Shown here in pieces: positions 11,225 to 31,022 of a stretch of DNA of 48,334 nucleotides (positions are counted from its first letter, which is position 1; each line of letters opens with the position of its first letter). The stretch covers positions 1 through 48,334 of the forward strand of contig QZJL01000029.1 of the NCBI GenBank assembly GCA_003599745.1, in the 5' to 3' direction. The notes under the pieces were generated by a model. It saw nothing but the letters and a program-made list of their open reading frames with translations, had not been told where the DNA came from and ran no database searches. Origin of the DNA: Dehalococcoidia bacterium. Its GTDB lineage: Bacteria > Chloroflexota > Dehalococcoidia > Dehalococcoidales > SURF-40. Made by a program: the position numbers and the translations under genes.

Positions 11225-11314
11225 GGAGGGGTGTCCGAGTGGCCTATGGTGACGGTCTTGAAAACCGTTGTCGGTGCAAGCCGACCGTGGGTTCGAATCC
11301 CACCCCCTCCGCCA
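11225..11314 (+). tRNA. tRNA-Ser (anticodon UGA) with encoded CCA
   Basis: Acceptor GGAGGGG/CCCCTCC. Anticodon stem ACGGT/ACCGT with loop CUUGAAA. Long variable arm (TGTCGGTGCAAGCCGACC). T arm GTGGG-TTCGAAT-CCCAC. Discriminator G followed by CCA. Confidence 0.95.
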
Positions 11315-11318
11315 ACCT

Positions 11319-12908
11319 TCACCGCCCCACCACTTCCACCCTCTCCAGCCTCACAAACCCCAGCACATTAGGCTCATAGCCTTTAACGTAGGGCTTCACC
11401 AAAAGGTAGCTCCTGCCTGTCCATAGCGGGATGCAGGCGAAGTCGTCAACCAGCGTCTTTTCAGCCTGTCGGTAGAGGGAAATCATTTTAGCTTCATCCG
11501 GCTCGAGCGCCGCCTGCGCCAGCAGGGCGTCCACTGCCGGGTTGGCATATTCCCCGAAGTTGCTTTCGGAACCAGTGCCGAACAGCACGTCGAGAAAGTT
11601 CTGCGGGTGCGGGTAGTCGGCAATCCAGCCCATATCGAACATCTGGTCTTTCTCCGCCCGCAGGCTATAGAAATAGAAATCGGGCTCTAATTGGCGGAGG
11701 GTGACCTCCACCCCCAGGTTCTCACGCCACTGCACCACCAGGGCATCGAGGTAGCCCGGTACCAGACCGCCCCAGCCGGAGACGGTGAGGACGATGGGCG
11801 GCAGGTTAGCGGCGCTGCCGTAGCGCGAAGCTTCAAGGTATGCCTTCGCCCGGTTGGCGTCGAAGCTCTCGCCCTTCAGATTCGGGTCGTAGCCGGGTAT
11901 GCCGGGTGGCAGGATGCCGTGCGCCACCGGCGCCGTACCGTGGAAGACCAGCGAGGCCAGCTTTTCTTTATCCACCGCCAGGGCAAAAGCACGGCGGACG
12001 TTAACATCGTCGAAGGGCGGCTGGCGGTGGTTAAAGCCGATAAAGCCGAAGCTCAGCTCGGAGACGACCTCAAGCTCACCGAGGAAAGCCCCGGCGGGGT
12101 CGGTGGCCTTATAGATTTCCGCCGAGGAGACTCCGGCGACATCGATCTCGCCGGTCTCGTAGAGGTCGAAGGGCACGCCGCCTAAAAATTTGAAGACGAC
12201 CCTGCCCAGCTTTGCCTTCTCGCCGTAGTAGCCGTCGTTGCCGACAAGGACGAGCTGCTGGCGGGGCTGCCACTGGCTGAGCTTGAAAGGGCCGGTGCCG
12301 TTGGGTTTCTGCCACCACCCGGCGCCACCGGCGACATTGTTGCGGTCAACCACGAAGGAGGTGGGGTAAGCGAGCTTGTAGAGGAAATAGGTCTTCGGGG
12401 CGTCAAGGGTGACCTCAAGGGTATGGTCGCCAATCACCTTTACCCCGCTTATTTCGCTGGCCTTGCCCGATAGCTTGTCCAAAATCCCGACGATGTCGCC
12501 GAGATAGGTGGAGGCGGTCTGCGAGCCGGTCCGGGGGTCAACCGCCCGCTCCCAGGCGTACTTGAAATCCCCGGCGGTGACTTTGCGGCCGTCGTGAAAG
12601 GTCACGTCCTGCCTGAGGAAGAAGGTGTAGGTGAGGCCACCGTTGCTGACTTCCCAGCGTTCGGCGATGTCCGGCGCGGGAGCGAGGTCGTCCTCCAGGC
12701 GGACGAGGCCGCTGAAAATCTGCTGGACGTACCCGCTGGAGGTGGCGTCGGCGGCCAGCGCCGGGTCGAGGGTGAAGGGGTCAATGTTATAGAGGTTCAG
12801 GGTGCCGCCCGAGGGTATGGTTGCAGGCGATAACCATGGCAGGCAGGCTGATAACCCCGGCAAGGCCGTCATCAGCAGAGCGAGCGATAACAGTACCAGC
12901 TTTCTCAT
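11319..12908 (-). CDS. ABC transporter substrate-binding lipoprotein, family 5 (peptide/nickel type); no adjacent permease or ATPase
   Basis: Signal peptide with lipobox LPGLSAC. Overall length and pattern (DPxxxxD, YxFxLRxxVxFHDG, LVxNDxYYG) are typical of SBP_bac_5. Confidence 0.85.
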   Translation of the reverse strand: MRKLVLLSLALLMTALPGLSACLPWLSPATIPSGGTLNLYNIDPFTLDPALAADATSSGYVQQIFSGLVRLEDDLAPAPDIAERWEVSNGGLTYTFFLRQDVTFHDGRKVTAGDFKYAWERAVDPRTGSQTASTYLGDIVGILDKLSGKASEISGVKVIGDHTLEVTLDAPKTYFLYKLAYPTSFVVDRNNVAGGAGWWQKPNGTGPFKLSQWQPRQQLVLVGNDGYYGEKAKLGRVVFKFLGGVPFDLYETGEIDVAGVSSAEIYKATDPAGAFLGELEVVSELSFGFIGFNHRQPPFDDVNVRRAFALAVDKEKLASLVFHGTAPVAHGILPPGIPGYDPNLKGESFDANRAKAYLEASRYGSAANLPPIVLTVSGWGGLVPGYLDALVVQWRENLGVEVTLRQLEPDFYFYSLRAEKDQMFDMGWIADYPHPQNFLDVLFGTGSESNFGEYANPAVDALLAQAALEPDEAKMISLYRQAEKTLVDDFACIPLWTGRSYLLVKPYVKGYEPNVLGFVRLERVEVVGR

Positions 12909-14056
12909 CTGACTGCTCCCGCCAGCTCAGGCTGAGCTGGTGTGGCTGCCCCCGCCAGGTACTGGCTGCGGACGTAGTCCCGCCATAGACGGTTAAGGCC
13001 GTCAGTATCGAAGCCATAGACCTTCAGGAGGGCAGCGTCGTAGTCGCTGCCCTGGCGGAAGACGCCGAGCAATTCCAGCATTCTGGACTGCCCGTAGGTG
13101 CCGATGAGATAATCCACGATACTGAAGCTCTGGGCGTAGGCTAGCACCGCCTGGTCGGTTAACGCCGAAAACGGGCTTGATAGGGTACGGACGGTAAACA
13201 GCCGGTCGGCTGCCACCGCCCGACGAAAAGAGGTGGTAAATTGCCCTTCCAGCGGGCCTTCAGCATACATCGCCATCCCCTCATCCAGCCAGACCGGAAT
13301 ATCAAGGTAGGGGTTATCGGTGAGCTGGTGCACCACCAGGTGGGCCAGCTCGTGGGCGACTGTCCTTTTTCCCCAGTCGAGCATCACCGGCGAAACCCCC
13401 AGTGTTATGATGCCGTAGTCGGGATAAGCGGCGCCGCCCGTCCACTCGCTGGGGAAAACCATCGCCCCCTGCAGGTCGCCGCTGCCGTTGTAAAGGTAGA
13501 CGCTAACCGGGCTTGAGAGCAGCGTGCCGGTGTCCTGGCCCAGGCGGGGCAAAGCCGCCTGCGCCGCCGCCATCATCTCGCGGGCGAAAGCGTCGTTACC
13601 GGCGTACCAGTAGATGGTCAGCTGGCCTTCGCTCAAGCTGCGCCAGGCGTAGCGGGCGTCGTGCCAGTCAACCCGCTTTACCTCGCTGGTAGTCACCCGC
13701 CCCCCGGCATCGGTTAGAAGCCACCAGTAGCGCACCGCCGTGCCCGGGGGCAGGCCGCCGGTAAAGCGCATATCAAGGGTGTAGCCGGCGTCAACCTGCG
13801 TGCCGGGCGTAAACGGCACGGCGACCTCGGCGGTTACCCGGGCAAAGCCGGTACGCTCAACTTCGTAGCGCACGCGGACATCGGTAATCTGGCTATCGCC
13901 GGACGCGGAAAGGGAGAAGTTAAGCCGGGTGGGAAAGTCCGCCTGGGCACCGCTGGATAAGACCCGGGGCCCGCTCTGGGATTGGGCGGCTACCGGGGCG
14001 ACCATCACCCAGACTACCGAGACCAGCAACAGGATGATTAGCAGTTTATGTTTCAT
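12905..14056 (-). CDS. Secreted zinc metallopeptidase, MA-clan-like (HExxH)
   Basis: N-terminal signal peptide (MKHKLLIILLLVSVVWVMVAPVAAQ). HELAH motif in VAHELAHLVVHQ, with a downstream E (WLDEGMAMY). ATGA overlap with the binding-protein gene. Confidence 0.65.
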   Translation of the reverse strand: MKHKLLIILLLVSVVWVMVAPVAAQSQSGPRVLSSGAQADFPTRLNFSLSASGDSQITDVRVRYEVERTGFARVTAEVAVPFTPGTQVDAGYTLDMRFTGGLPPGTAVRYWWLLTDAGGRVTTSEVKRVDWHDARYAWRSLSEGQLTIYWYAGNDAFAREMMAAAQAALPRLGQDTGTLLSSPVSVYLYNGSGDLQGAMVFPSEWTGGAAYPDYGIITLGVSPVMLDWGKRTVAHELAHLVVHQLTDNPYLDIPVWLDEGMAMYAEGPLEGQFTTSFRRAVAADRLFTVRTLSSPFSALTDQAVLAYAQSFSIVDYLIGTYGQSRMLELLGVFRQGSDYDAALLKVYGFDTDGLNRLWRDYVRSQYLAGAATPAQPELAGAVR

Positions 14057-22971: not shown

Positions 22972-23107
22972 GGGCTGCCCTAACTGAAAGGGTTAGGAGT
23001 TTCCGTTATCTCGGAAGACTGGTTATCCAACGACTTTTTCTTTGTTGTCGTTTCCTCATCACCAACACCCTGATTATAACACAACTTCTCGGCGGATAAG
23101 GCAGAGG

Positions 23108-23138
23108 GCAAAAAACAAACAAAAGAGCCTTATGGCTC
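23108..23138 (-). terminator. Candidate intrinsic terminator of the rpsP-KH operon
   Basis: Minus strand: GGAGCC-AUAA-GGCUCU hairpin followed by UUUGUUUGUUUUUUG. Located about 40 nt after the KH gene stop. Confidence 0.5.
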
Positions 23139-23176
23139 CAGACCTGGTGGGGTTCGTCTGAGGTTGAAAAGGAGAG

Positions 23177-23404
23177 CTAGATAATCTCGAGGGTGACCCG
23201 GGTGCCCGCCTTGGCGGCTTTAACGCGCAGCAGGGTGCGCATCGCGCCGGCAATCCGGCCCTGTTTTCCGATTATCCGGCCCTTATCTTCATCGGCAACC
23301 TTGAGTTGTAAAACGATGCCGCGCTCGTCTTCCGTCTCGGTCACGACCACTGAATCGGGGGCGTTGACAATGGACCTGGCGATGTACTCCACGAGTTCTT
23401 TCAT
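23177..23404 (-). CDS. KH-domain RNA-binding protein (YlqC/UPF0109 type)
   Basis: 75 aa with GxxG motif in GRIIGKQGRIAGAMRTLL. ATGA overlap with the rpsP stop. Conserved rpsP-KH synteny. Confidence 0.85.
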   Translation of the reverse strand: MKELVEYIARSIVNAPDSVVVTETEDERGIVLQLKVADEDKGRIIGKQGRIAGAMRTLLRVKAAKAGTRVTLEII

Positions 23405-23670
23405 GGTGTCTCCTTGAGCTTCTTGAACTTGTCCATGATGCCTGCCTTGGCCAGTAGCCGGGCAACGGTCTCGGTCGGTTGAGCGCCTTTGCCCAGCCAG
23501 TGCAACGCTTGTTCCTCATCAATGACGATGGTTTCCGGGTTGGTGCGGGGGTCAAAGTGGCCGAGCCGGGCGATAAACGCGCCGTCCCTCGGAGAATGGG
23601 AATCGCTGACCACCACCCGGTAGCTCGGTTTCTGCTTGGCTCCAACTCTGCGCAATCTTATTTTAACCAT
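23401..23670 (-). CDS. rpsP: 30S ribosomal protein S16
   Basis: MVKIRLRRVGAKQKPSYRVVVSDSHSPRDG. The listed ORF extends to 23748, but the conserved N-terminus starts at ATG 23670. Confidence 0.95.
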   Translation of the reverse strand: MVKIRLRRVGAKQKPSYRVVVSDSHSPRDGAFIARLGHFDPRTNPETIVIDEEQALHWLGKGAQPTETVARLLAKAGIMDKFKKLKETP

Positions 23671-23679
23671 ACGTATTAC

Positions 23680-23709
23680 ACTATACGATAACCCAGTCGG
23701 GACTGTCAA
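23680..23709 (-). promoter_or_regulatory. Candidate promoter of rpsP giving a near-leaderless transcript
   Basis: Minus strand: TTGACA, 18-nt spacer, TATAGT, then 9 nt to the ATG with no SD. Confidence 0.5.
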
Positions 23710-23886
23710 CCGCCCACAGTGTAATCTTTCTTGACAGCCGGGCCCCACATCTGATTGGAATCTTCGCCAAATGGATATTGACTTTTATGAGACATTAATA
23801 TACTATTCTGGACAACAATATAATTTATGAGAATCGTCGAGTCACAGTTTTCTGACATCGATGGGGACTATCGTGAGGTATCAGGG

Positions 23887-24432
23887 ATGGCATTAATGAC
23901 AGTTCAGGAGGTCGCTGATTATCTTCGGGTCACAACGAAGACGGTATACAGACTGCTTGAGAAAGATAGCATACCGGCGACAAAGGTAGGCCGTCAATGG
24001 AGATTTGACGAGTCCTCAATTGATGTCTGGCTGCGTCAGCAGCCGGCAGAAAAAAAAGTAGCGAATATCCTTGTCATAGACGATGACCAGATGATTTGCC
24101 TGCTTTTCAAAGACGCTCTTGAGGCATTGGGGCACGCTGTAACCACCGTTGAAAACCCTTTAAAAGGATTGGACCTGGTGAAAAACGGAGATTATGACCT
24201 AGTATTTCTTGATTTGAAAATGCCGGGAATGGATGGTGCTGAGCTTTTAGCACAAATCAGGATAGCCAAACCCAAGCTCCCGGTAACTGTGATTACCGGT
24301 TACCCGGAAAGCGAACTTATGATGCGTGCTCTGGTACATGGCCCGCTAGGCGTGATGAGCAAGCCTTTTCGGGTATCGGATGTCCTGATCGCTGTTAATA
24401 ACTACCTCAGATTCGGCACAACGACCAAATAA
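23887..24432 (+). CDS. Response regulator with reversed architecture: N-terminal excisionase/MerR-type HTH and C-terminal receiver domain
   Basis: HTH: MTVQEVADYLRVTTKTVYRLLEKDSIPATKVGRQWRF. REC: ILVIDDD, LVFLDLKMPGMDG, VITGY, SKPF. The ORF is open from ATG 23827; ATG 23887 has a GAGG SD and matches the usual HTH N-terminus. Confidence 0.8.
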   Translation: MALMTVQEVADYLRVTTKTVYRLLEKDSIPATKVGRQWRFDESSIDVWLRQQPAEKKVANILVIDDDQMICLLFKDALEALGHAVTTVENPLKGLDLVKNGDYDLVFLDLKMPGMDGAELLAQIRIAKPKLPVTVITGYPESELMMRALVHGPLGVMSKPFRVSDVLIAVNNYLRFGTTTK

Positions 24433-24437
24433 TATTT

Positions 24438-24457
24438 AAGGAGGGATTATGCGCTGA
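24438..24457 (+). promoter_or_regulatory. Strong SD followed by a two-codon mini-ORF (ATG CGC TGA) upstream of the precursor-peptide gene
   Basis: AAGGAGGG (24438-24445), 3-nt spacer, then ATG-CGC-TGA (24449-24457). Confidence 0.35.
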
Positions 24458-24522
24458 ACATCTTCGCCCATTGAACCATGTCTTCATATTACTGCAAACG
24501 AAATTTCGAAAGGAGTCATCAA

Positions 24523-24753
24523 ATGAGGTCTCAGGCATTACAAAGTCTGGTCAAAAAAATCTTCGGCGACGAAAAGACGAGGCTCGAATTCGAGTCAAAC
24601 CCGGAAGGCGTTCTATCCCAGTTCGATCTATCGAAACAAGAGAAAAAAGCGGTGATGAACACCTATTCTAAACTGGGGTTGGTGAGCGGTAACTCTCAGC
24701 AGATGGAGGCAACGCTTAAAGCCACTATCGATTGGAGTGCCCCCGAGCCGTGA
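24523..24753 (+). CDS. 76-aa candidate RiPP/pheromone precursor peptide (NHLP/Nif11-like leader, Trp-containing C-terminal core)
   Basis: AAAGGAG SD lies 7 nt before ATG 24523 (listed ORF starts at 24478). Leader: LVKKIFGDEKTRLEFESNPEGVLSQFDLSKQEKKAV. C-terminus: ...GNSQQMEATLKATIDWSAPEP, containing the only Trp. Its stop overlaps a GTG of the next gene (GTGA). Confidence 0.6.
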   Translation: MRSQALQSLVKKIFGDEKTRLEFESNPEGVLSQFDLSKQEKKAVMNTYSKLGLVSGNSQQMEATLKATIDWSAPEP

Positions 24754-25715
24754 CGCCACTGCCGTGGCAAGAAAAACAGACTCAGGTTCTCAGAAGTGAG
24801 ATAGATTTAGTTCTGGCGCCTTTGACTAACATTGCTAGTTTATGCGATTTGGTTAAAGAATCTCTTACACAGGAGAGAAGGGCATTTGCCACCGAACACG
24901 AGAATAGCCGGCCGTGGCCTCTATTACCTTTGATAATATGTGAGGCGATCTCAGGCCAATATGAAGTAGCAATCCCTGTGGCAGCCGCTCGCCAATTTAT
25001 GGTAGCTGCTGCTGACATCTTTGATGACATAGAGGACGAAGATTCTCCGAGGTCGTTACCTGCCAAATATGGGGTTGCAGCGGCGACAAATGTGGCGACA
25101 ACTCTTCTAATTCTGGCAGAAAGAGCTGTTACGCGACTTAAAGATAAAGGCGTCTCAAATGAGAATGTAGTCCGAGTCATGGACTCTTTCAATTCGTTCT
25201 ATGCCACTGCATGTGTTGGGCAACACTTAGACCTCTCTTTAACTCCAGAAACAGCGGCCTCGGAGGAAATCTATCTCAGAATCATAGAATTGAAGTCAGC
25301 GTCTCAGGTAAAGTGTGCCTGCAATATAGGAGCGTTGCTAGCAGGAGCTGACCGGCAATTGATCGCCAAGTTCTCAGATTTTGGTTATAACCTTGGAATG
25401 GCTTCACAAATCACAAATGACATTCAGGGGATTACTGATGGAAAGGACATTTTTAATAGAAAAATAACTCTGCCTGTAATATACGCACTAAATCAAACGG
25501 AGGGGGACATTCGGCTAGAGCTAGAGACCGTATTCTGCAAAAGGTCCAAGCATGAACCTGCTACATCATTAATACAGGATTTGTTGTTTCGTACCGGTGG
25601 CATTCACTACGCTGTGGTAAAGATGGAACTATATAGACAGAAAGCTATGGATATCCTATCAGATATTACAAAGTTAGGAATTGTTGTAGAAAGGCTAAAA
25701 CTGTTCCTAGAATGA
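24750..25715 (+). CDS. Polyprenyl-synthetase-family protein with degenerate catalytic motifs; ComQ-like peptide prenyltransferase candidate
   Basis: First acidic motif retained (IFDDIEDED). The second DDxxD is replaced by NDIQG (GMASQITNDIQG). GGKRxRP and RRG signatures are absent. GQHLDL and KITLPVIYAL match the family fold. The ORF is open from TTG 24732; GTG 24750 gives GTGA coupling to the peptide gene. Confidence 0.75.
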   Translation: MTPLPWQEKQTQVLRSEIDLVLAPLTNIASLCDLVKESLTQERRAFATEHENSRPWPLLPLIICEAISGQYEVAIPVAAARQFMVAAADIFDDIEDEDSPRSLPAKYGVAAATNVATTLLILAERAVTRLKDKGVSNENVVRVMDSFNSFYATACVGQHLDLSLTPETAASEEIYLRIIELKSASQVKCACNIGALLAGADRQLIAKFSDFGYNLGMASQITNDIQGITDGKDIFNRKITLPVIYALNQTEGDIRLELETVFCKRSKHEPATSLIQDLLFRTGGIHYAVVKMELYRQKAMDILSDITKLGIVVERLKLFLE

Positions 25716-25731
25716 AACAAACGGAGTTCCC

Positions 25732-28155
25732 TTGAGTTCTTCAGATAATAGATTAAACCGGCTGCTAACTGGGAAAGAAGGACTGAAGCCAACGCTGCTT
25801 TTATTCTTTGCCTTCTGCATTGTAGCTATTTCCCTAATTTTCTTCATCTCAAGTATCGGCAAGCCGTCTATCGGAGTAAGTCTCACTCGTGATTCTCAAG
25901 GTTGGCTAGTCAGCATCACGGATGCAAACGGCTTAGCAAATGAGACTGGTATTAAAGCCGGTGACAGGCCAATAGAAATCAATGGTCAGCCAGCCCAAGT
26001 GTTCTTAGAAAAATACGAAGAGGTCGGTTTGGTTCTTGGAAGACTAATCCAGAAACTCACTGTAGTCGACAATGTTGGACAGACCAAGACGGTAGTTCTT
26101 GAAGGTACTTCACCTTCATGGGAATCGATCATTAGCCGGATCTCGAGGTTTGCAGTCTCCTTCATATTTTGGATAACCGCATTCTTCGTGTTCTTTAAAA
26201 AACCGAAAAGCATTTTATCTCTACTGCTAATATTAATGGGGCTTTCATTCGGTCTTGTCCTTAGTGGGAACATGGCATCTGAGGTTGCAATTGCCACAGC
26301 GGTCTGGTTTGAGGTTACTGCGACAGCTATCGCGCCTTGGCTGCTCCTCCATTTTTTCCTTGCGCTACCCCAGGAGCGAGTTTGGGCTCGGGGAAACAAC
26401 CTCGTATATCTTATCTATCTTTTACCGCTAATTGCTGCGGTTTTATTCCCTATTGTTGGTTATGCTAATGGGCAACCTGTGCCGGGATTTCGATCCTTCA
26501 GGTACGCCTTGTATGCATCGGGATTTATAGCAGTAATTTGTGTGGCAGTCGTCAACTACTTCCGTACTGATTTGACCAGAACAAGGCAGCAAATGAAGAT
26601 AGTGTTATTCGGCTGTCTTGCTGCCCTAATTCCTCCCCTAGCTCTCTATATTATCCCGTCAGCGATATGGGGACGGGCCATTCTTCCCGGAGAAATAAAT
26701 ATTTTGTTTGTTGCGTTCATACCCCTGGCTATGGGTTACGCAGTCGTCACAAAACAGCTGATGGACATAGACGTTATTATGAGGCGGAGTTTGATTTATG
26801 GCCTGGTCACCATAGTGATGGCAGCAATTCTATCGGCCGGTATTTTTATTGCATTTGCTTTCCGTCGCACTATGGGGGTTCCCGAAGAAATACTGATTGC
26901 TCTGATTCTGGGAGGGATTGCCACCGCGTTATTCGGGCCAACCAAGAAGGGCGTTGAAAACCTCATTGACAGGCTTTTCTACAAAGACAGGTACGACTAC
27001 AAGCAAATAATCCAGAGCCTGGGTATCTCTTTGAACTCCGCTATTGGTTTAACCGCAGTTTCACGCCTCGTCGTCGGCACTGTGGTTAACACGTTGAATC
27101 TGGCTGGGGGATGTTTGTTTGTCAGGACACAATCCGGTTCTTTCGAGGTTGGAGCGGCACAGGGCTCGTATATTGACCCGGCCCAACAAAGACAGCTGCT
27201 GGAGCTGATTCCGAAGAGAAGCCGCCTGGTGGAGTTTCCAAATAATGCGCCATCAGAAAGTCCTGACGCAGCCTTCCTGGTGCCGCTCGTAGTAGGTGAG
27301 AAAGAGGTGGGTGTTCTTTGTCTGTCGCGTAAGAAAACCAGACAAGATTTTTCGCCGGACGACCTGTACCTAATCCAGGGGATTGCTTCAGCAGCTTCAA
27401 TGGCGTTGCACAGCGTTATGCTTAAACGTGACGTCAGTATCCGGGCTACTTTTGTCTCGGTCGCCTCCCACGAACTTCGCACCCCGTTGACTTCAATCGT
27501 AGGTTATGCCGACTTACTGCTGCAGCGCGACCCCCCGGCTGCCACCAGGAAACAGTGGCTCAAAAACATTCTTGATAACAGCCAGAGGGTCAGCGATATG
27601 GTGGACGACCTCTTGAATGTCAGCCGAATTCAGTCCGGCAAAACCAGTATCAAGCTTGAAAGAGTGAGCTTACCCGGTCCTCTTGAGGAGACTCTCTCCC
27701 TAAGCCGCGAAACTACCAACAAACATGAATTTGTTGTTGACATAGAACCCGGCCTTCCCTATTTATCGGTTGACCGGAACAAGTTCGGTGAGATTATTGG
27801 TAACCTTCTAAGCAACGCCATTAAATATAGCCCGAATGGTGGACTCATTACCCTTTCCGCTCGCTCTGAACCAGCAGAACACCGCGTAATTGTGAGCGTA
27901 TCTGATGAGGGTATTGGGATAGCTCCCGAAGATAGAGCCTCGCTGTTTACATCTTTTCACCGGATTCAGAGACCCGAGACCAAGGGAATCAGGGGAAGTG
28001 GCCTGGGTCTCTACATAGCCAAAGAGTGGACGGAGGCGATGGGGGGAAATATCTGGGTGGAGAGCGAATTGAACAAAGGCTCAACTTTCTTTGTGGCGGT
28101 TCCGGCTAAGGCTTCAAGTAAGGTGGGACAAGAATCAAGATTACCTGCCGAATAG
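25732..28155 (+). CDS. Polytopic membrane sensor histidine kinase (TM, PDZ-like segment, about 9 further TM helices, GAF-like, HisKA, HATPase)
   Basis: GIKAGDRPIEINGQP (PDZ-like), multiple hydrophobic helices, H-box VASHELRTPL, N box LLSNAIKYSPNGG, G boxes DEGIGI and GSGLGLYIAKEW. TTG start preceded by ACGGAG. Confidence 0.9.
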   Translation: MSSSDNRLNRLLTGKEGLKPTLLLFFAFCIVAISLIFFISSIGKPSIGVSLTRDSQGWLVSITDANGLANETGIKAGDRPIEINGQPAQVFLEKYEEVGLVLGRLIQKLTVVDNVGQTKTVVLEGTSPSWESIISRISRFAVSFIFWITAFFVFFKKPKSILSLLLILMGLSFGLVLSGNMASEVAIATAVWFEVTATAIAPWLLLHFFLALPQERVWARGNNLVYLIYLLPLIAAVLFPIVGYANGQPVPGFRSFRYALYASGFIAVICVAVVNYFRTDLTRTRQQMKIVLFGCLAALIPPLALYIIPSAIWGRAILPGEINILFVAFIPLAMGYAVVTKQLMDIDVIMRRSLIYGLVTIVMAAILSAGIFIAFAFRRTMGVPEEILIALILGGIATALFGPTKKGVENLIDRLFYKDRYDYKQIIQSLGISLNSAIGLTAVSRLVVGTVVNTLNLAGGCLFVRTQSGSFEVGAAQGSYIDPAQQRQLLELIPKRSRLVEFPNNAPSESPDAAFLVPLVVGEKEVGVLCLSRKKTRQDFSPDDLYLIQGIASAASMALHSVMLKRDVSIRATFVSVASHELRTPLTSIVGYADLLLQRDPPAATRKQWLKNILDNSQRVSDMVDDLLNVSRIQSGKTSIKLERVSLPGPLEETLSLSRETTNKHEFVVDIEPGLPYLSVDRNKFGEIIGNLLSNAIKYSPNGGLITLSARSEPAEHRVIVSVSDEGIGIAPEDRASLFTSFHRIQRPETKGIRGSGLGLYIAKEWTEAMGGNIWVESELNKGSTFFVAVPAKASSKVGQESRLPAE

Positions 28156-28539
28156 GGGACGAGAATAAAAAAGATATTAATAGTTGAGGATGACGAGAGC
28201 GTCAGGGACCTGCTCTGTGCCATATTCAACACCTTTATGGGGCGTTACCATACCGTATGCGCCAAAGATGGTGAAGAGGCTCTCAGCATCGCGCGGATTG
28301 ATGTCCCGGATATTATTTTGCTGGATATCAATTTGCCTGGCTTGAACGGATACCAGGTTTGCAGGCTTGTTAAGGCAGACCCGGGGATGTCAGAAACCAA
28401 AGTCATAATGATAACCGGTATGGCGCAAAGCTACGACCAGTCAAAAGCCAGGGAAGCGGGCGCTGACGGTTATTTCACAAAGCCATTCAGTTCCGCCGCC
28501 CTGGCTAAAAAAGTGGGGACTCTTCTTGAGAGCAGATAA
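28156..28539 (+). CDS. Stand-alone receiver (REC) domain whose conserved N-terminus precedes the first canonical start codon; in frame with the kinase across one TAG
   Basis: The frame opens right after the kinase TAG: GTRIKKILIVEDDESVRDLLCAIFNTFMGRY... No ATG, GTG or TTG occurs in frame before ATG 28237. REC residues present: EDD, ILLDINLPGLNG, MITG, FTKPF. Confidence 0.75.
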   Translation, partial: GTRIKKILIVEDDESVRDLLCAIFNTFMGRYHTVCAKDGEEALSIARIDVPDIILLDINLPGLNGYQVCRLVKADPGMSETKVIMITGMAQSYDQSKAREAGADGYFTKPFSSAALAKKVGTLLESR

Positions 28540-28541
28540 AG

Positions 28542-29108
28542 ATGCAAGTGGCAGAGCGCGACGCAGTAGTGCTAGTTGACGAGCAGGGCCGTGACAAGTA
28601 TCAAGATGATGGCCGGCTATCCATCTCCGGGAAGATAGAGGCGCATCGCCGTGGTCAATTACATAGGGCGGTTTCTGTCTTCATCTTTAACGATGGGAAC
28701 GAAATTTTGCTGCAGAAGCGCGCTGATGGTAAGTATCATTCCCCGGGAAAGTGGACTAATACCTGTTGCACTCATCCTGTACCGGGTGAGAGTCCAGTTA
28801 AAGCTGCACGAAGCAGGCTCGTTGAGGAAATGGGAATTGTAACCCAGTTAACCGAGGCCTTTGCGTTTTTATATCGAGCCGATGTCGGAAATGGTCTAGT
28901 CGAAAATGAATTCGACCACGTATTCGTCGGGGTCTTTAATCAGAAACCAAACCCTGACCCGGATGAAGTGTCCGACTGGAAATGGACGCCTGCAAAAGAG
29001 TTAAGACAAGAATTGGATATTAATCCTGATGAGTATAGTCCCTGGCTTCGGCAATGCTTCAGCGAAGTGTTTGAATACAGGCTACGAGACGCGAGCGGTT
29101 GCATATGA
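28542..29108 (+). CDS. idi: Isopentenyl-diphosphate delta-isomerase, type 1 (Nudix fold)
   Basis: HRRGQLHRAVSVFIFN, LLQKRA..K, KWTNTCCTHP (catalytic Cys), VENEFDHVFVG (catalytic Glu). Confidence 0.88.
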   Translation: MQVAERDAVVLVDEQGRDKYQDDGRLSISGKIEAHRRGQLHRAVSVFIFNDGNEILLQKRADGKYHSPGKWTNTCCTHPVPGESPVKAARSRLVEEMGIVTQLTEAFAFLYRADVGNGLVENEFDHVFVGVFNQKPNPDPDEVSDWKWTPAKELRQELDINPDEYSPWLRQCFSEVFEYRLRDASGCI

Positions 29109-29915: not shown

Positions 29916-31022
29916 ATGAATGTTGCCAAAATCCTCGTCGTGGATGATGAGGAAGCCGTGCGAGAAGTGATTCAGGCGATGCTTGAAACTAAAGGGTATG
30001 AAGTAGACGTCGCGGGGGACGCTGTGGAAGCATTAGCAGATGCCAAGCAAAAACAATACGATTTGCTCATCACGGACATCTGTATGCCCGAGATAGACGG
30101 TTTGGAGCTTAGCCGAAGGTTGCGGGAATCAAGCCCTGATATTGCTTCAATACTGGTTACCGGATACCCGACGGTTGACACGGCAATGGCAGGGGTCAAG
30201 ACAGGCGTCTATGACTATATAATCAAACCGGTAAGGAAGGATAAACTTTGTCATTCCGTAGCCAGTGTCATTAAAAGGCAACAGCACGTGCGTTTTCTGG
30301 AGAAAATGGCGCGCGATTCACAAAAAGAGGAAAACGACCGGGGGCAGTTCGTCAACGTCCTTGCCCACGAACTTTACACATCACTTACACCGATGCTCAC
30401 TGGCGCCGAACTAATGCTGGAAAGAGTCAAAGGTGAGCCGAACACTGTCGAGGACAGGTTGGCAAAGGTAATGTTCGGCAGCGCACAGATGATGCGCTAT
30501 CGCCTCGACAAATTGCTGCTGCTCGCCCGGCTTGAGGCAGGAGGCTTTGTCTTACATTTAACTCGGTTTGACGTTCTGACCATCATCAAGCAAGCAAAAG
30601 CAAGGTTTGACGTCGTAGCATCCGAGAAGGGTCAGCGCTTGGAATTGGATATACCGGATAGCCCACTTCCCATCAAAGCCGATCGCTCTTGTCTCGAGCA
30701 GGTTATAACAAACCTCTTGGAGAACGCGTTGAAATTTACACCCGAAGGCGGAAAAGTTCTATTAGAAGCGAAGATTGTCGAGGGTGAACTGTTGGTCAGT
30801 GTGCAAGACAGTGGGGCCACATTTACTGACGAAGAGCGTCAGCGTCTGATGCAACCATTTTGGAGGAGCGAGATAGACAGGCAAAGGATTCCCGGGGTTC
30901 GCCTAGGGTTAGCTCTGTGCCAGAAGTTAGTTGAAATTCAAGGTGGTACGATTTGGGTAGAGGGCGGCAAGGAAGGAGGAAACACTTTCGCTTTCGCTGT
31001 GCCGGTTTCAGCCACTGAGTAG
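29916..31022 (+). CDS. Soluble hybrid REC-HisKA-HATPase sensor kinase
   Basis: REC: ILVVDDEE, LLITDICMPEIDG, LVTGY, IKP. H-box LAHELYTSLTP, N box NLLENALKFTPEGG, G box GVRLGLALCQKLVE. No TM segment. Confidence 0.88.
   Translation: MNVAKILVVDDEEAVREVIQAMLETKGYEVDVAGDAVEALADAKQKQYDLLITDICMPEIDGLELSRRLRESSPDIASILVTGYPTVDTAMAGVKTGVYDYIIKPVRKDKLCHSVASVIKRQQHVRFLEKMARDSQKEENDRGQFVNVLAHELYTSLTPMLTGAELMLERVKGEPNTVEDRLAKVMFGSAQMMRYRLDKLLLLARLEAGGFVLHLTRFDVLTIIKQAKARFDVVASEKGQRLELDIPDSPLPIKADRSCLEQVITNLLENALKFTPEGGKVLLEAKIVEGELLVSVQDSGATFTDEERQRLMQPFWRSEIDRQRIPGVRLGLALCQKLVEIQGGTIWVEGGKEGGNTFAFAVPVSATE

Follow-up and report, generated by a model that had tools for sequence, protein, structure and literature searches.

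The subject of this report is a small gene, X, in DNA from a Dehalococcoidia bacterium (Chloroflexota, Dehalococcoidales; NCBI GenBank assembly GCA_003599745.1, contig QZJL01000029.1, positions 1 to 48,334 of the forward strand); the whole stretch of 48,334 nucleotides is referred to as the window. X encodes a peptide of 76 residues and is followed by Q, which encodes a ComQ-family enzyme, and by P, which encodes a large sensor histidine kinase; a regulator gene lies upstream and several accessory genes lie downstream (Table 1). An earlier note on this DNA, made by a model from the letters alone, had proposed that X is a precursor peptide. X, Q and the downstream kinase are a signalling cassette of the ComQXP type – a point missed by that note – and X is probably the precursor of a ComX-type prenylated lipopeptide signal.

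Gene X and its family

The open reading frame (ORF) of X is a real and conserved gene. A word-indexed search returned 17 close homologues. Searching 1.84 billion cluster representatives with a profile yielded 89 clusters at 50% identity, 57 of them with E <= 1e-10; together they form a previously unannotated family with 161 unique full-length sequences. The homologues begin at a Met equivalent to that at 24523 (MKSQALQ...), and a ribosome-binding site of the AAGGAGG type precedes X at equal spacing in related loci. When the window was compared to ten related loci, nucleotide differences in the X leader numbered 185, 105 and 306 at codon positions 1, 2 and 3 respectively, a pattern that indicates purifying selection on the frame starting at 24523. 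The earlier note had described the gene accurately: the Shine-Dalgarno sequence is present, and the quoted translation, the Cys-free tail, the one Trp and the nearby Lys are all exact. The translation in fact contains no Cys at all; its single Trp is residue 71, sixth from the C-terminus (WSAPEP), and Lys66 (in LKATIDW) stands five residues before it. The TGA stop of X (24751-24753) overlaps the GTG start of Q at 24750 (GTGA, 24750-24753).

Two other frames had been named in the earlier note as possible true products. Neither is the product: the starts of the homologues, the conserved ribosome-binding site and the third-position substitutions favour 24523. An in-frame start at the upstream ATG 24478 was rejected, being a non-conserved extension that merely translates the ribosome-binding site; the ORF in another frame at 24471..24671 (66 residues) was also rejected, as it overlaps the selected X frame and carries no sign of conservation. 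A paralogue check found no second copy of the precursor or of the sensor in the window. Locus L005, taken up as an X in a different genomic context, was discarded: blastn shows it to be window positions 23048..26646.

Members of the family share a conserved N-terminal part and a variable tail. Among close relatives residues 1-62 are strongly conserved, while the final 14 or so vary with the exception of Trp71, and in an alignment of 79 representatives (at 50% identity) the sole invariant columns are Met1 and Trp71. A tail Trp is found in all 161 unique members; elsewhere in the sequences there are 8 Trp in 8930 residues. This is the pattern – leader conserved, tail Trp invariant – that the earlier note expected of aligned relatives if X is a precursor peptide, and that part of its proposal is borne out. 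In 86 of the 161 members the last Trp is the penultimate residue; in 45 it stands sixth from the C-terminus, and 33 of these (window X included) belong to a W-x-(A/S)-P-x-P tail class. The consensus of the window class reads ...S-Q-Q-L-E-A-A-L-x-P-T-x-x-W-x-A-P-x-P, and in the WxxPxP class the variable positions around the Trp are -5, -2, -1, +1 and +4.

Five relatives (P0018, P0143, P0155, P0177 and P0187) contain two to three tandem core repeats, each with its own Trp. The repeat unit begins at the LEA motif, such that LEA...W...P units follow one another after a single leader; an example is P0018 (L004 10001-10294), which ends ...MEATLEGPWSAP LEATLEGPWSAPEP. Since it is the tail unit alone that occurs in tandem copies, the tail unit and not the leader is the product-encoding part, and the multi-core arrangement suggests that such precursors yield several copies of a peptide. 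In the AlphaFold2 model of X, residues 3-67 form five helices and the tail is disordered, with a predicted local distance difference test (pLDDT) score of 66 (moderate confidence). As a side observation, the X profile also matches six stretches of P0205, a Cys-rich, repetitive protein of 609 residues (repeat ...SILSEGEFSxEEREEILARH...), which is probably an unrelated repeat protein with a common helix pattern.

The earlier note had recognised the leader as resembling those of NHLP and Nif11 precursors of ribosomally synthesized and post-translationally modified peptides (RiPPs). At the level of the superfamily the resemblance stands: of the 79 family members, 57 match NF038399 of the NHLP clan (E <= 0.01, best 6e-12), 66 match LigA PF07746, 26 TIGR04509, 9 TIGR03793, 7 Frankia_peptide and 3 Nif11. 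Window X itself falls below every curated cut-off (18.7 bits against 40 for NF038399, 17.4 against 34 for TIGR04509 and 20.2 against 25.3 for PF07746) and has no match to Nif11 (PF07862) or TIGR03793. A fold search with the model of X gave weak, non-significant matches, the best being the LigA-like region of DesB (E 0.37), with SonA borosin precursors at E 4-6. Together these comparisons partly support a leader that is NHLP-like at the superfamily level only, with no family membership. As the earlier note remarked, there is no GG-type cleavage site: neither a Gly-Gly leader site before the X tail nor, in 23.8-31.7 kb, an ABC exporter with a C39 peptidase was found. The X family would tie ComX-like precursors to the NHLP/LigA leader superfamily.

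The enzyme Q and the sensor kinase P

X lies directly 5' of Q in every Chloroflexi locus examined, and Q, judged by motifs and homology, is a genuine member of the ComQ family, as the earlier note had supposed of the neighbouring enzyme. Q carries a first Asp-rich motif (FARM), DDIED, at residues 92-96 and a substitute for the second Asp-rich motif (a pseudo-SARM), NDIQG, at residues 223-227; both are invariant across 19 and 38 family members, distant ones included. Bacillus ComQ (from L091 and L066) carries the same motifs (DDIEDKD / QIANDHYG), and DDI(E/Q)DxD together with Q(I/L)xND is common to window Q, Bacillus ComQ and the Sphaerobacter StheQ-like protein. Retention of the FARM with NDxxx in place of the second Asp-rich motif defines the ComQ-family Trp prenyltransferases (PMC10853753; bioRxiv 10.64898/2026.08.29.745113), and because NDxxx replaces that motif in Q, the enzyme is not expected to elongate prenyl chains.

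Q is 28-31% identical to Bacillus ComQ (29-31% in pairwise comparison), with E-values of 4e-19 to 2e-27 (tblastn, blastp), and 30% identical to the Sphaerobacter StheQ-like protein. E-values from local hmmsearch and blast runs, here and below for the sensor homology, the ComP match and the X-profile match of the Sphaerobacter peptide, refer to small databases. With window Q as the phmmer query, Bacillus ComQ scores 59-84 bits (the 84 being that of B. zhangzhouensis), the StheQ-like protein 88 and the Desulfosporosinus Q 131, compared to 57 for the best canonical synthase in the Protein Data Bank (PDB). The AlphaFold2 model of Q (pLDDT 86.6) has as its nearest folds geranylgeranyl diphosphate (GGPP) synthase (TM-score 0.82) and the indole prenyltransferase Ord1 (0.75), a search that does not separate peptide prenyltransferases from chain-elongating synthases. 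GGPP synthase and Ord1 are also the fold neighbours that the preprint reports for StheQ (bioRxiv 10.64898/2026.08.29.745113); StheQ itself was not found in our copy of the PDB, either by sequence or by fold.

A scan with the Q alignment, covering one genome per species, returned three groups: Dehalococcoidia and Dehalococcoidales metagenome-assembled genomes (MAGs) plus one Dehalogenimonas genome (44-58% identity); other Chloroflexota, including Ktedonobacteraceae and Sphaerobacter sp.; and lastly Desulfosporosinus, Dehalobacter and Desulfitobacterium along with genuine Bacillus comQ genes. By the nearest homologues of Q, X and P, the host of the window is probably a member of the Dehalococcoidia. 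X-Q loci that are close to Dehalococcoidales ones, some of them nearly identical (L026, L038, L054 and P0101), sit in MAGs assigned to Clostridiales, Syntrophaceae, Gammaproteobacteria and Bathyarchaeia; their placement probably reflects misbinning of short contigs, and the peptide of L025 is identical to that of L026.

The sensor module of P (residues 1-560) is homologous to the protein encoded right after Q elsewhere, whatever its output, and nearly all loci that extend far enough have a homologous module after Q. It is also homologous to the sensor of ComP: a profile of the module, built without any Bacillus sequence, matches Bacillus ComP at E 1.4e-41 (L091, over profile positions 12-539 of 546) and 4e-34 (L066). 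Outputs vary. In the window clade the module is joined to a HisKA kinase and in another type to HisKA plus a receiver, while L011-13, distant members of the X-Q group, have the genuine ComP/ComA arrangement, with a HisKA_3 kinase and, after it, a receiver-GerE regulator. In other loci the module is fused to HD-GYP (L009 9249-11606, L033 6970-9378 and L034 6834-9080) or, in Sphaerobacter sp., to HD-GYP, GAF and GGDEF (L084 6835-10164), and these fusions hint at peptide control of cyclic di-GMP (c-di-GMP).

Rates of divergence differ between the parts of the cassette. Identity to relatives is 53-58% for Q and 54-59% for the sensor module, compared to 65-76% for the kinase core, 60-73% for the regulator and 64-77% for the radical S-adenosylmethionine (radical-SAM) protein encoded downstream. 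Q and sensor thus diverge together and faster than the kinase core, a pherotype-like pattern that fits a signal-receptor pair. This resembles the com loci of Bacillus, which are described as strongly polymorphic: ComA is conserved best, then ComP, ComQ and ComX (PMC4008528).

Regulator, accessory genes and the island

The promoter-like sites upstream of the cassette lie 60-110 nt before the start of the regulator gene at 23887 and, as consensus matches, mark the probable promoter of a regulator-X-Q-P transcription unit; the stretch from the regulator gene to X contains no convincing match of this kind. Although the regulator ORF opens at ATG 23827, homologues (MGLMTLQEV) start at a Met equivalent to ATG 23887 (MALMTVQEV). 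The regulator is kept just 5' of X in L001-3, L016, L032 and L038 (60-73% identity) and is a candidate for the output regulator, in the role of ComA. The ribosome-binding site and mini-ORF that follow it have counterparts in related loci (ATG CAT ATT TAA in L001, ATG TAA in L032 and L038), and this element may set ribosome loading ahead of X.

The stand-alone receiver domain downstream of P recurs after the kinase in L001-3, L014, L018 and L032, where ATG, GTG or TTG stands about three codons before KKILIVEDD; the window has ATA at this place. No ATG, GTG or TTG occurs before 28237, and a start there would remove the acidic pocket. A rare ATA start, a lost start codon, or read-through of the TAG giving a hybrid kinase are all possible. 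The type 1 isopentenyl-diphosphate (IPP) isomerase gene is found among related loci only in L001-3, L014, L016 and L032, and its product probably supplies the prenyl-donor pool. L001-3, L024 and L032 also carry the radical-SAM gene (64-77% identity). A metagenome scan with its protein for linkage to X and Q gave one irrelevant locus at 25% identity, so that the linkage is drawn from 4 locus types. By sequence the solved relatives of the protein are YydG-type epimerases only, matched over the N-terminal core only, and it scores below every curated maturase cut-off. The soluble hybrid kinase encoded last in the island is a possible phosphorelay partner, its membership of the system being uncertain.

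All these genes lie in a low-GC island of about 23.5-31.5 kb (44-51% GC versus 59-65% in the flanks), which is probably acquired DNA, bordered by rpsP/KH genes (minus strand) and by a uracil-DNA-glycosylase-like gene. A tRNA scan of the window found only a tRNA-Ser at 11225, and no Rfam family was found in 22.9-31.9 kb. The earlier note had seen neither peptidase nor export gene in the island, and we also found none; this parallels the case of ComX, for which the protease is likewise unknown (PMC10853753). Elsewhere in the window, 10 kb upstream in the high-GC backbone, a gene at 12905-14056 (-) encodes a secreted zinc metalloprotease of the Peptidase_MA_2 type, with a HELAH motif and a signal-peptide-like N-terminus; it is the sole candidate extracellular protease in the window and shows no link to the cassette.

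Table 1. Features of the X locus. Coordinates are positions in the window; profile matches are given with their E-values.
Feature	Position	Strand	Remarks
Two overlapping sigma-70-like promoter matches	23778..23824	+	TTGACT-17-TACTAT and TTAATA-18-TATAAT; consensus matches only
Regulator gene, HTH_17 (excisionase/MerR-like) with C-terminal receiver	23887..24432	+	HTH_17 1.6e-17, Response_reg 6e-25
Ribosome-binding site AAGGAGG, then two-codon mini-ORF ATG CGC TGA	24438..24457	+	between regulator gene and X
X ribosome-binding site AAAGGAG	24509-24515	+	7 nt 5' of ATG 24523
X, precursor gene	24523..24753	+	76-residue ComX/StheX-like peptide
X leader, residues 1-62	24523..24708	+	conserved helical LigA/NHLP-like superfamily domain; ends in conserved (Q)LEA motif
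X variable C-terminal region, residues 63-76, ATLKATIDWSAPEP	24709..24750	+	hypervariable; holds predicted pheromone
X tail peptide, example stretch			TLKATIDWSAPEP
Trp71 codon, TGG	24733-24735	+	predicted prenylation site; invariant in close-relative and 79-sequence alignments and in 161/161 unique members
Q, predicted ComQ-family peptide Trp prenyltransferase	24750..25715	+	polyprenyl-synthase fold, PF00348 3e-27
P, 807-residue sensor histidine kinase	25732..28155	+	Pfam, hydropathy, sensor-module profile
P sensor module, residues 1-560	25732..27411	+	transmembrane helix, PDZ-like outer loop, about 9 transmembrane helices, YKDRYDY motif, GAF
P transmitter, residues 561-807			HisKA (PF00512) and HATPase_c
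Stand-alone receiver domain	28156..28539	+	kinase frame continued after single TAG (28153-28155): …LPAE (stop) GTRIKKILIVEDD…
Type 1 IPP isomerase	28542..29108	+	NF002995 2e-49, above cut-off
Radical-SAM protein, 260 residues	29099..29881	+	CX3CX2C, Cys-rich SPASM/twitch-like C-terminus; PF04055 2e-7, SPASM 1e-3
Soluble hybrid kinase, receiver, HisKA and HATPase_c	29916..31022	+	no membrane segments; inside low-GC island

Interpretation and comparison with known systems

If X is the precursor of a ComX-type signal, the parts of the cassette would work as follows. X would be translated together with Q via the overlapping stop and start codons, and its helical leader (about 62 residues) would dock onto Q, which – with a prenyl-diphosphate-binding FARM retained and NDxxx as second Asp-rich motif – would act as a non-elongating enzyme and transfer a prenyl group to C3 of Trp71, the IPP isomerase probably feeding the donor pool. 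As the analogy to ComX, PalX and StheX suggests, the prenylated Trp71 would cyclise to a pyrroloindoline. Unlinked host functions would then trim away the leader, setting free a short prenylated peptide from within ATLKATIDWSAPEP, to be detected outside the cell by the ComP-like sensor of P; P in turn would signal via receiver proteins to the upstream HTH_17 regulator, resulting in cell-density or kin-specific gene control. We infer the prenylation of Trp71 by Q from homology to enzymes tested by others; the length of the donor, the site of cleavage, export, and signalling through P and the regulator are put forward in the same conditional sense. When the Chloroflexi X family and 17 Firmicute ComX peptides (from the retrieved loci) were compared profile to profile, hhalign gave a probability of 80% (E 1.5e-5) for a match that spans the full length and takes in the Trp; this is suggestive of a link between the two.

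Several observations weigh against this reading. Q is only about 30% identical to the enzymes tested by others, and the Trp, which lies sixth from the end in X (WxAPxP tail), is second in StheX, last in PalX and third in the ComX of strain 168. PalQ does not tolerate a C-terminal extension (PMC10853753); given this intolerance and the differing position of the Trp, the geometry of the substrate may differ. The Pfam family ComX (PF05952) is matched neither by window X (E <= 0.1) nor by the 79 members (E <= 0.01), and the profile-profile link to Firmicute ComX peptides is moderate. The pairing of HisKA with HTH_17-REC (REC, receiver) differs from that of HisKA_3 with REC-GerE, only the sensor half of the receptor being common to ComP; no exporter or protease for X was identified in the island; and the role of the radical-SAM protein is unexplained – it may provide a second modification. 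Finally, the biological role of StheX is stated to be unknown in its preprint (bioRxiv 10.64898/2026.08.29.745113).

That statement also lends something to the view that X is the precursor of a prenylated RiPP without a signalling role, antimicrobial or membrane-active, whose production or immunity is regulated by the two-component genes. Its leader resembles those of the NHLP clan, to which many non-signalling RiPPs belong; tailoring-type genes (radical-SAM, IPP isomerase) are at hand; and multi-core precursors, which are typical of natural-product RiPPs such as cyanobactins, occur in the X family. We nevertheless regard this as unlikely: the protein constantly linked to X and Q is a membrane sensor homologous to ComP which, being fused elsewhere to HisKA_3, HD-GYP or GGDEF, always feeds a signalling output; Q and this sensor diverge jointly and faster than the kinase core; and the island holds no transporter, immunity or protease gene. 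A folded, unprocessed X that serves as a LigA-like subunit or regulator of the polyprenyl-synthase-like protein, with no secreted product, would accord with the PF07746 matches of 66 of the 79 members, with the predicted helical domain and with the stable StheX-StheQ complex reported in the preprint. It would account neither for a hypervariable, disordered tail with an invariant Trp nor for relatives in which only the tail unit is repeated in tandem; the prenylation demonstrated for StheX and PalX and the constant linkage to a ComP-like sensor would also be left unexplained. This reading is quite improbable.

The earlier note had offered, next to the ComQ-like enzyme, a radical-SAM enzyme as modifier of the Trp, with the Lys-Trp crosslink of streptide-type peptides in mind. 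That the radical-SAM protein is the main modifier, installing a streptide-like Lys-Trp or other C-C crosslink while Q serves isoprenoid metabolism, draws on a SPASM-like C-terminus, on the recurrence of the gene beside X-Q-P and on Lys66. Yet a Lys occurs within seven residues before the Trp in only 20 of 158 tails, and in none of the other radical-SAM loci (L001 VVHDTNFWTDL, L032 AIEPTATWHAPTP, L024 GAEPLIAWV); the gene is missing from most related loci (L014, L016-L019) while Q is always present; the protein resembles peptide maturases over its N-terminal core only and below curated cut-offs; and the second Asp-rich motif, which chain elongation requires, is missing from Q. Because the Lys is not conserved and the gene is optional, a streptide-like crosslink is very improbable, and this half of the earlier proposal falls away. 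As to the frame itself, an in-frame ATG at 24478 and the overlapping 66-residue ORF at 24471 do exist, but with homologues in 89 clusters starting at the Met equivalent to 24523, a conserved ribosome-binding site before that Met and substitutions dominated by third positions in its frame, the chance that X is a fortuitous ORF, or that the product derives from either alternative, is negligible.

A prenylated signal therefore remains our preferred reading of X, and the window most likely holds a ComX-like prenylated pheromone system in Dehalococcoidia, a group without any such described system. ComX-type signalling was long believed to be restricted to Firmicutes, and a census of 2014 recorded comQXPA-like loci in that phylum alone (PMC4008528). 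Pairs resembling ComP/ComA were reported from Chloroflexi in a KEGG survey of 2022 (PMC8895600), and our literature search found no paper naming ComQ together with Dehalococcoidia; one 2026 preprint on an isolated enzyme-peptide pair is the only non-Firmicute evidence so far. In the window locus and its relatives, peptide, ComQ-family enzyme and ComP-homologous sensor travel together through Chloroflexota, Dehalococcoidia included; new in the window locus are the WxAPxP tail class with its internal Trp and the accessory IPP isomerase and radical-SAM genes. Organohalide-respiring genera used in bioremediation belong to the Dehalococcoidia; since they are difficult to cultivate, signals of cell density could be of practical importance. 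There are also consequences for annotation and biocatalysis: members of the X family are now 'hypothetical proteins' and their Q-family partners are mislabelled 'geranylgeranyl pyrophosphate synthase', while the Q family could offer new Trp-prenylating enzymes with an internal-Trp class of substrate (WxAPxP).

A broader picture is offered tentatively, as one that may well prove wrong: peptide quorum sensing or kin recognition in Dehalococcoidia, with a signal that is perhaps doubly tailored (by Q and the radical-SAM protein), a portable sensor, multi-core copies, and ComX, StheX and PalX as parts of one NHLP/LigA-like superfamily. If true, the sensor would be a lipopeptide-receptor module plugged, across the Chloroflexota, into two kinase families, HD-GYP phosphodiesterases and GGDEF cyclases; multi-core precursors would release several copies of a pheromone per translation product; and a prenylated peptide would directly control c-di-GMP levels in some lineages, where such control of c-di-GMP enzymes is a testable hypothesis.

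Among known systems, streptide-type peptides resemble X in being short Trp peptides with a radical-SAM gene nearby, and streptide has also been linked to quorum sensing; the difference is that in the window the Lys is not conserved and the radical-SAM protein is small, optional and below the curated maturase cut-offs. NHLP and Nif11 RiPP precursors (TIGR03793, TIGR04509, NF038399, PF07862) have, like X, a helical leader of similar length and pattern, and belong to the same superfamily as the LigA subunit. Unlike these systems, X has no GG motif, no C39-peptidase exporter and no core rich in Cys, Ser or Thr, and its predicted modifier is a prenyltransferase.

The PalQ/PalX/PalP system of Paenibacillus alvei (PMC10853753, 2023) shares with the window an NHLP-type leader, a conserved Trp in a short core, prenylation at indole C3 (predicted for X) and a cluster that includes a histidine kinase gene. 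PalX is prenylated by PalQ at its terminal Trp, and its NHLP-type leader can direct the reaction and enhances it without being strictly required (PMC10853753); compared by description, PalQ is terpene-synthase-like, clusters apart from ComQ and acts on a strictly C-terminal Trp, whereas Q belongs to PF00348 and its predicted target is an internal Trp. Clostridial com-like loci (Desulfosporosinus, Dehalobacter, Desulfitobacterium; L039-L083), known from the census of Dogsa et al. 2014 (PMC4008528), have X 5' of Q as in the window, and the same order holds in Chloroflexota, while in Bacillaceae the small ORF with a Trp tail lies downstream of the ComQ gene. Their Q is 28-35% identical, and the sensor module of their kinase 20-27% identical, to that of the window, and a variable tail (...PLDLWG, ...PMATWQ) carries their Trp as its penultimate residue; they differ in having a HisKA_3 kinase and a leader without significant match to the Chloroflexi X profile (E 0.004-0.7, small database).

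StheQ/StheX comes from the same phylum and likewise pairs a ComQ homologue with a peptide of about 70 residues. According to the preprint of August 2026, StheQ farnesylates in vitro the penultimate Trp of StheX, a peptide of 69 residues – an activity that lends weight to a ComQ-like modifier in the same pairing here – and StheX has, like window X, an ordered N-terminal region (about 59 residues) and a disordered Trp tail; no receptor is described in its accessible text, and the role is left open (bioRxiv 10.64898/2026.08.29.745113). The 69-residue ...GWWS peptide encoded beside Q of Sphaerobacter sp. Bu17 (L084) matches the X profile (E 8e-8) and fits the description of StheX in the preprint (69 residues, Trp 67 and 68); L084 serves as a proxy, being a Sphaerobacter sp. 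MAG of another species than the preprint's S. thermophilus. Looking up the clusters of Thermomicrobia-type peptides yielded no names. StheX belongs to Thermomicrobia and has its Trp second from the end, while window X is from Dehalococcoidia with the Trp sixth (WxAPxP), and the sensor of L084 is fused to HD-GYP, GAF and GGDEF where that of the window sits on a kinase.

The closest functional counterpart is ComQXPA of Bacillus. In both, a small precursor combines a conserved N-terminal part with a hypervariable tail that contains one Trp (essential in ComX); the adjacent gene encodes a ComQ-family enzyme with FARM and pseudo-SARM (28-31% identity); and the kinase downstream has a homologous multi-span sensor (E 1e-41) that includes a PDZ-like loop. 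Neither has a dedicated protease or exporter, and in each the kinase core diverges more slowly than enzyme and sensor. The differences are of several kinds: the host is a member of the Chloroflexota rather than of the Firmicutes; the gene order is regulator-X-Q-P as opposed to Q-X-P-A; the transmitter is HisKA with GAF, compared to HisKA_3 in ComP, and the regulator HTH_17-REC, compared to REC-GerE in ComA; X has 76 residues, a LigA/NHLP-like leader and no match to Pfam ComX, whereas ComX has about 55 residues; and the window also encodes a stand-alone receiver, the IPP isomerase, the radical-SAM protein and the soluble hybrid kinase. Since Q and the sensor of P, and apparently X, are homologous to their Bacillus counterparts while Pfam ComX, HisKA_3/GerE and gene order fail to agree, the cassette is best described as one that would work like ComQXPA without being a strict member of it.

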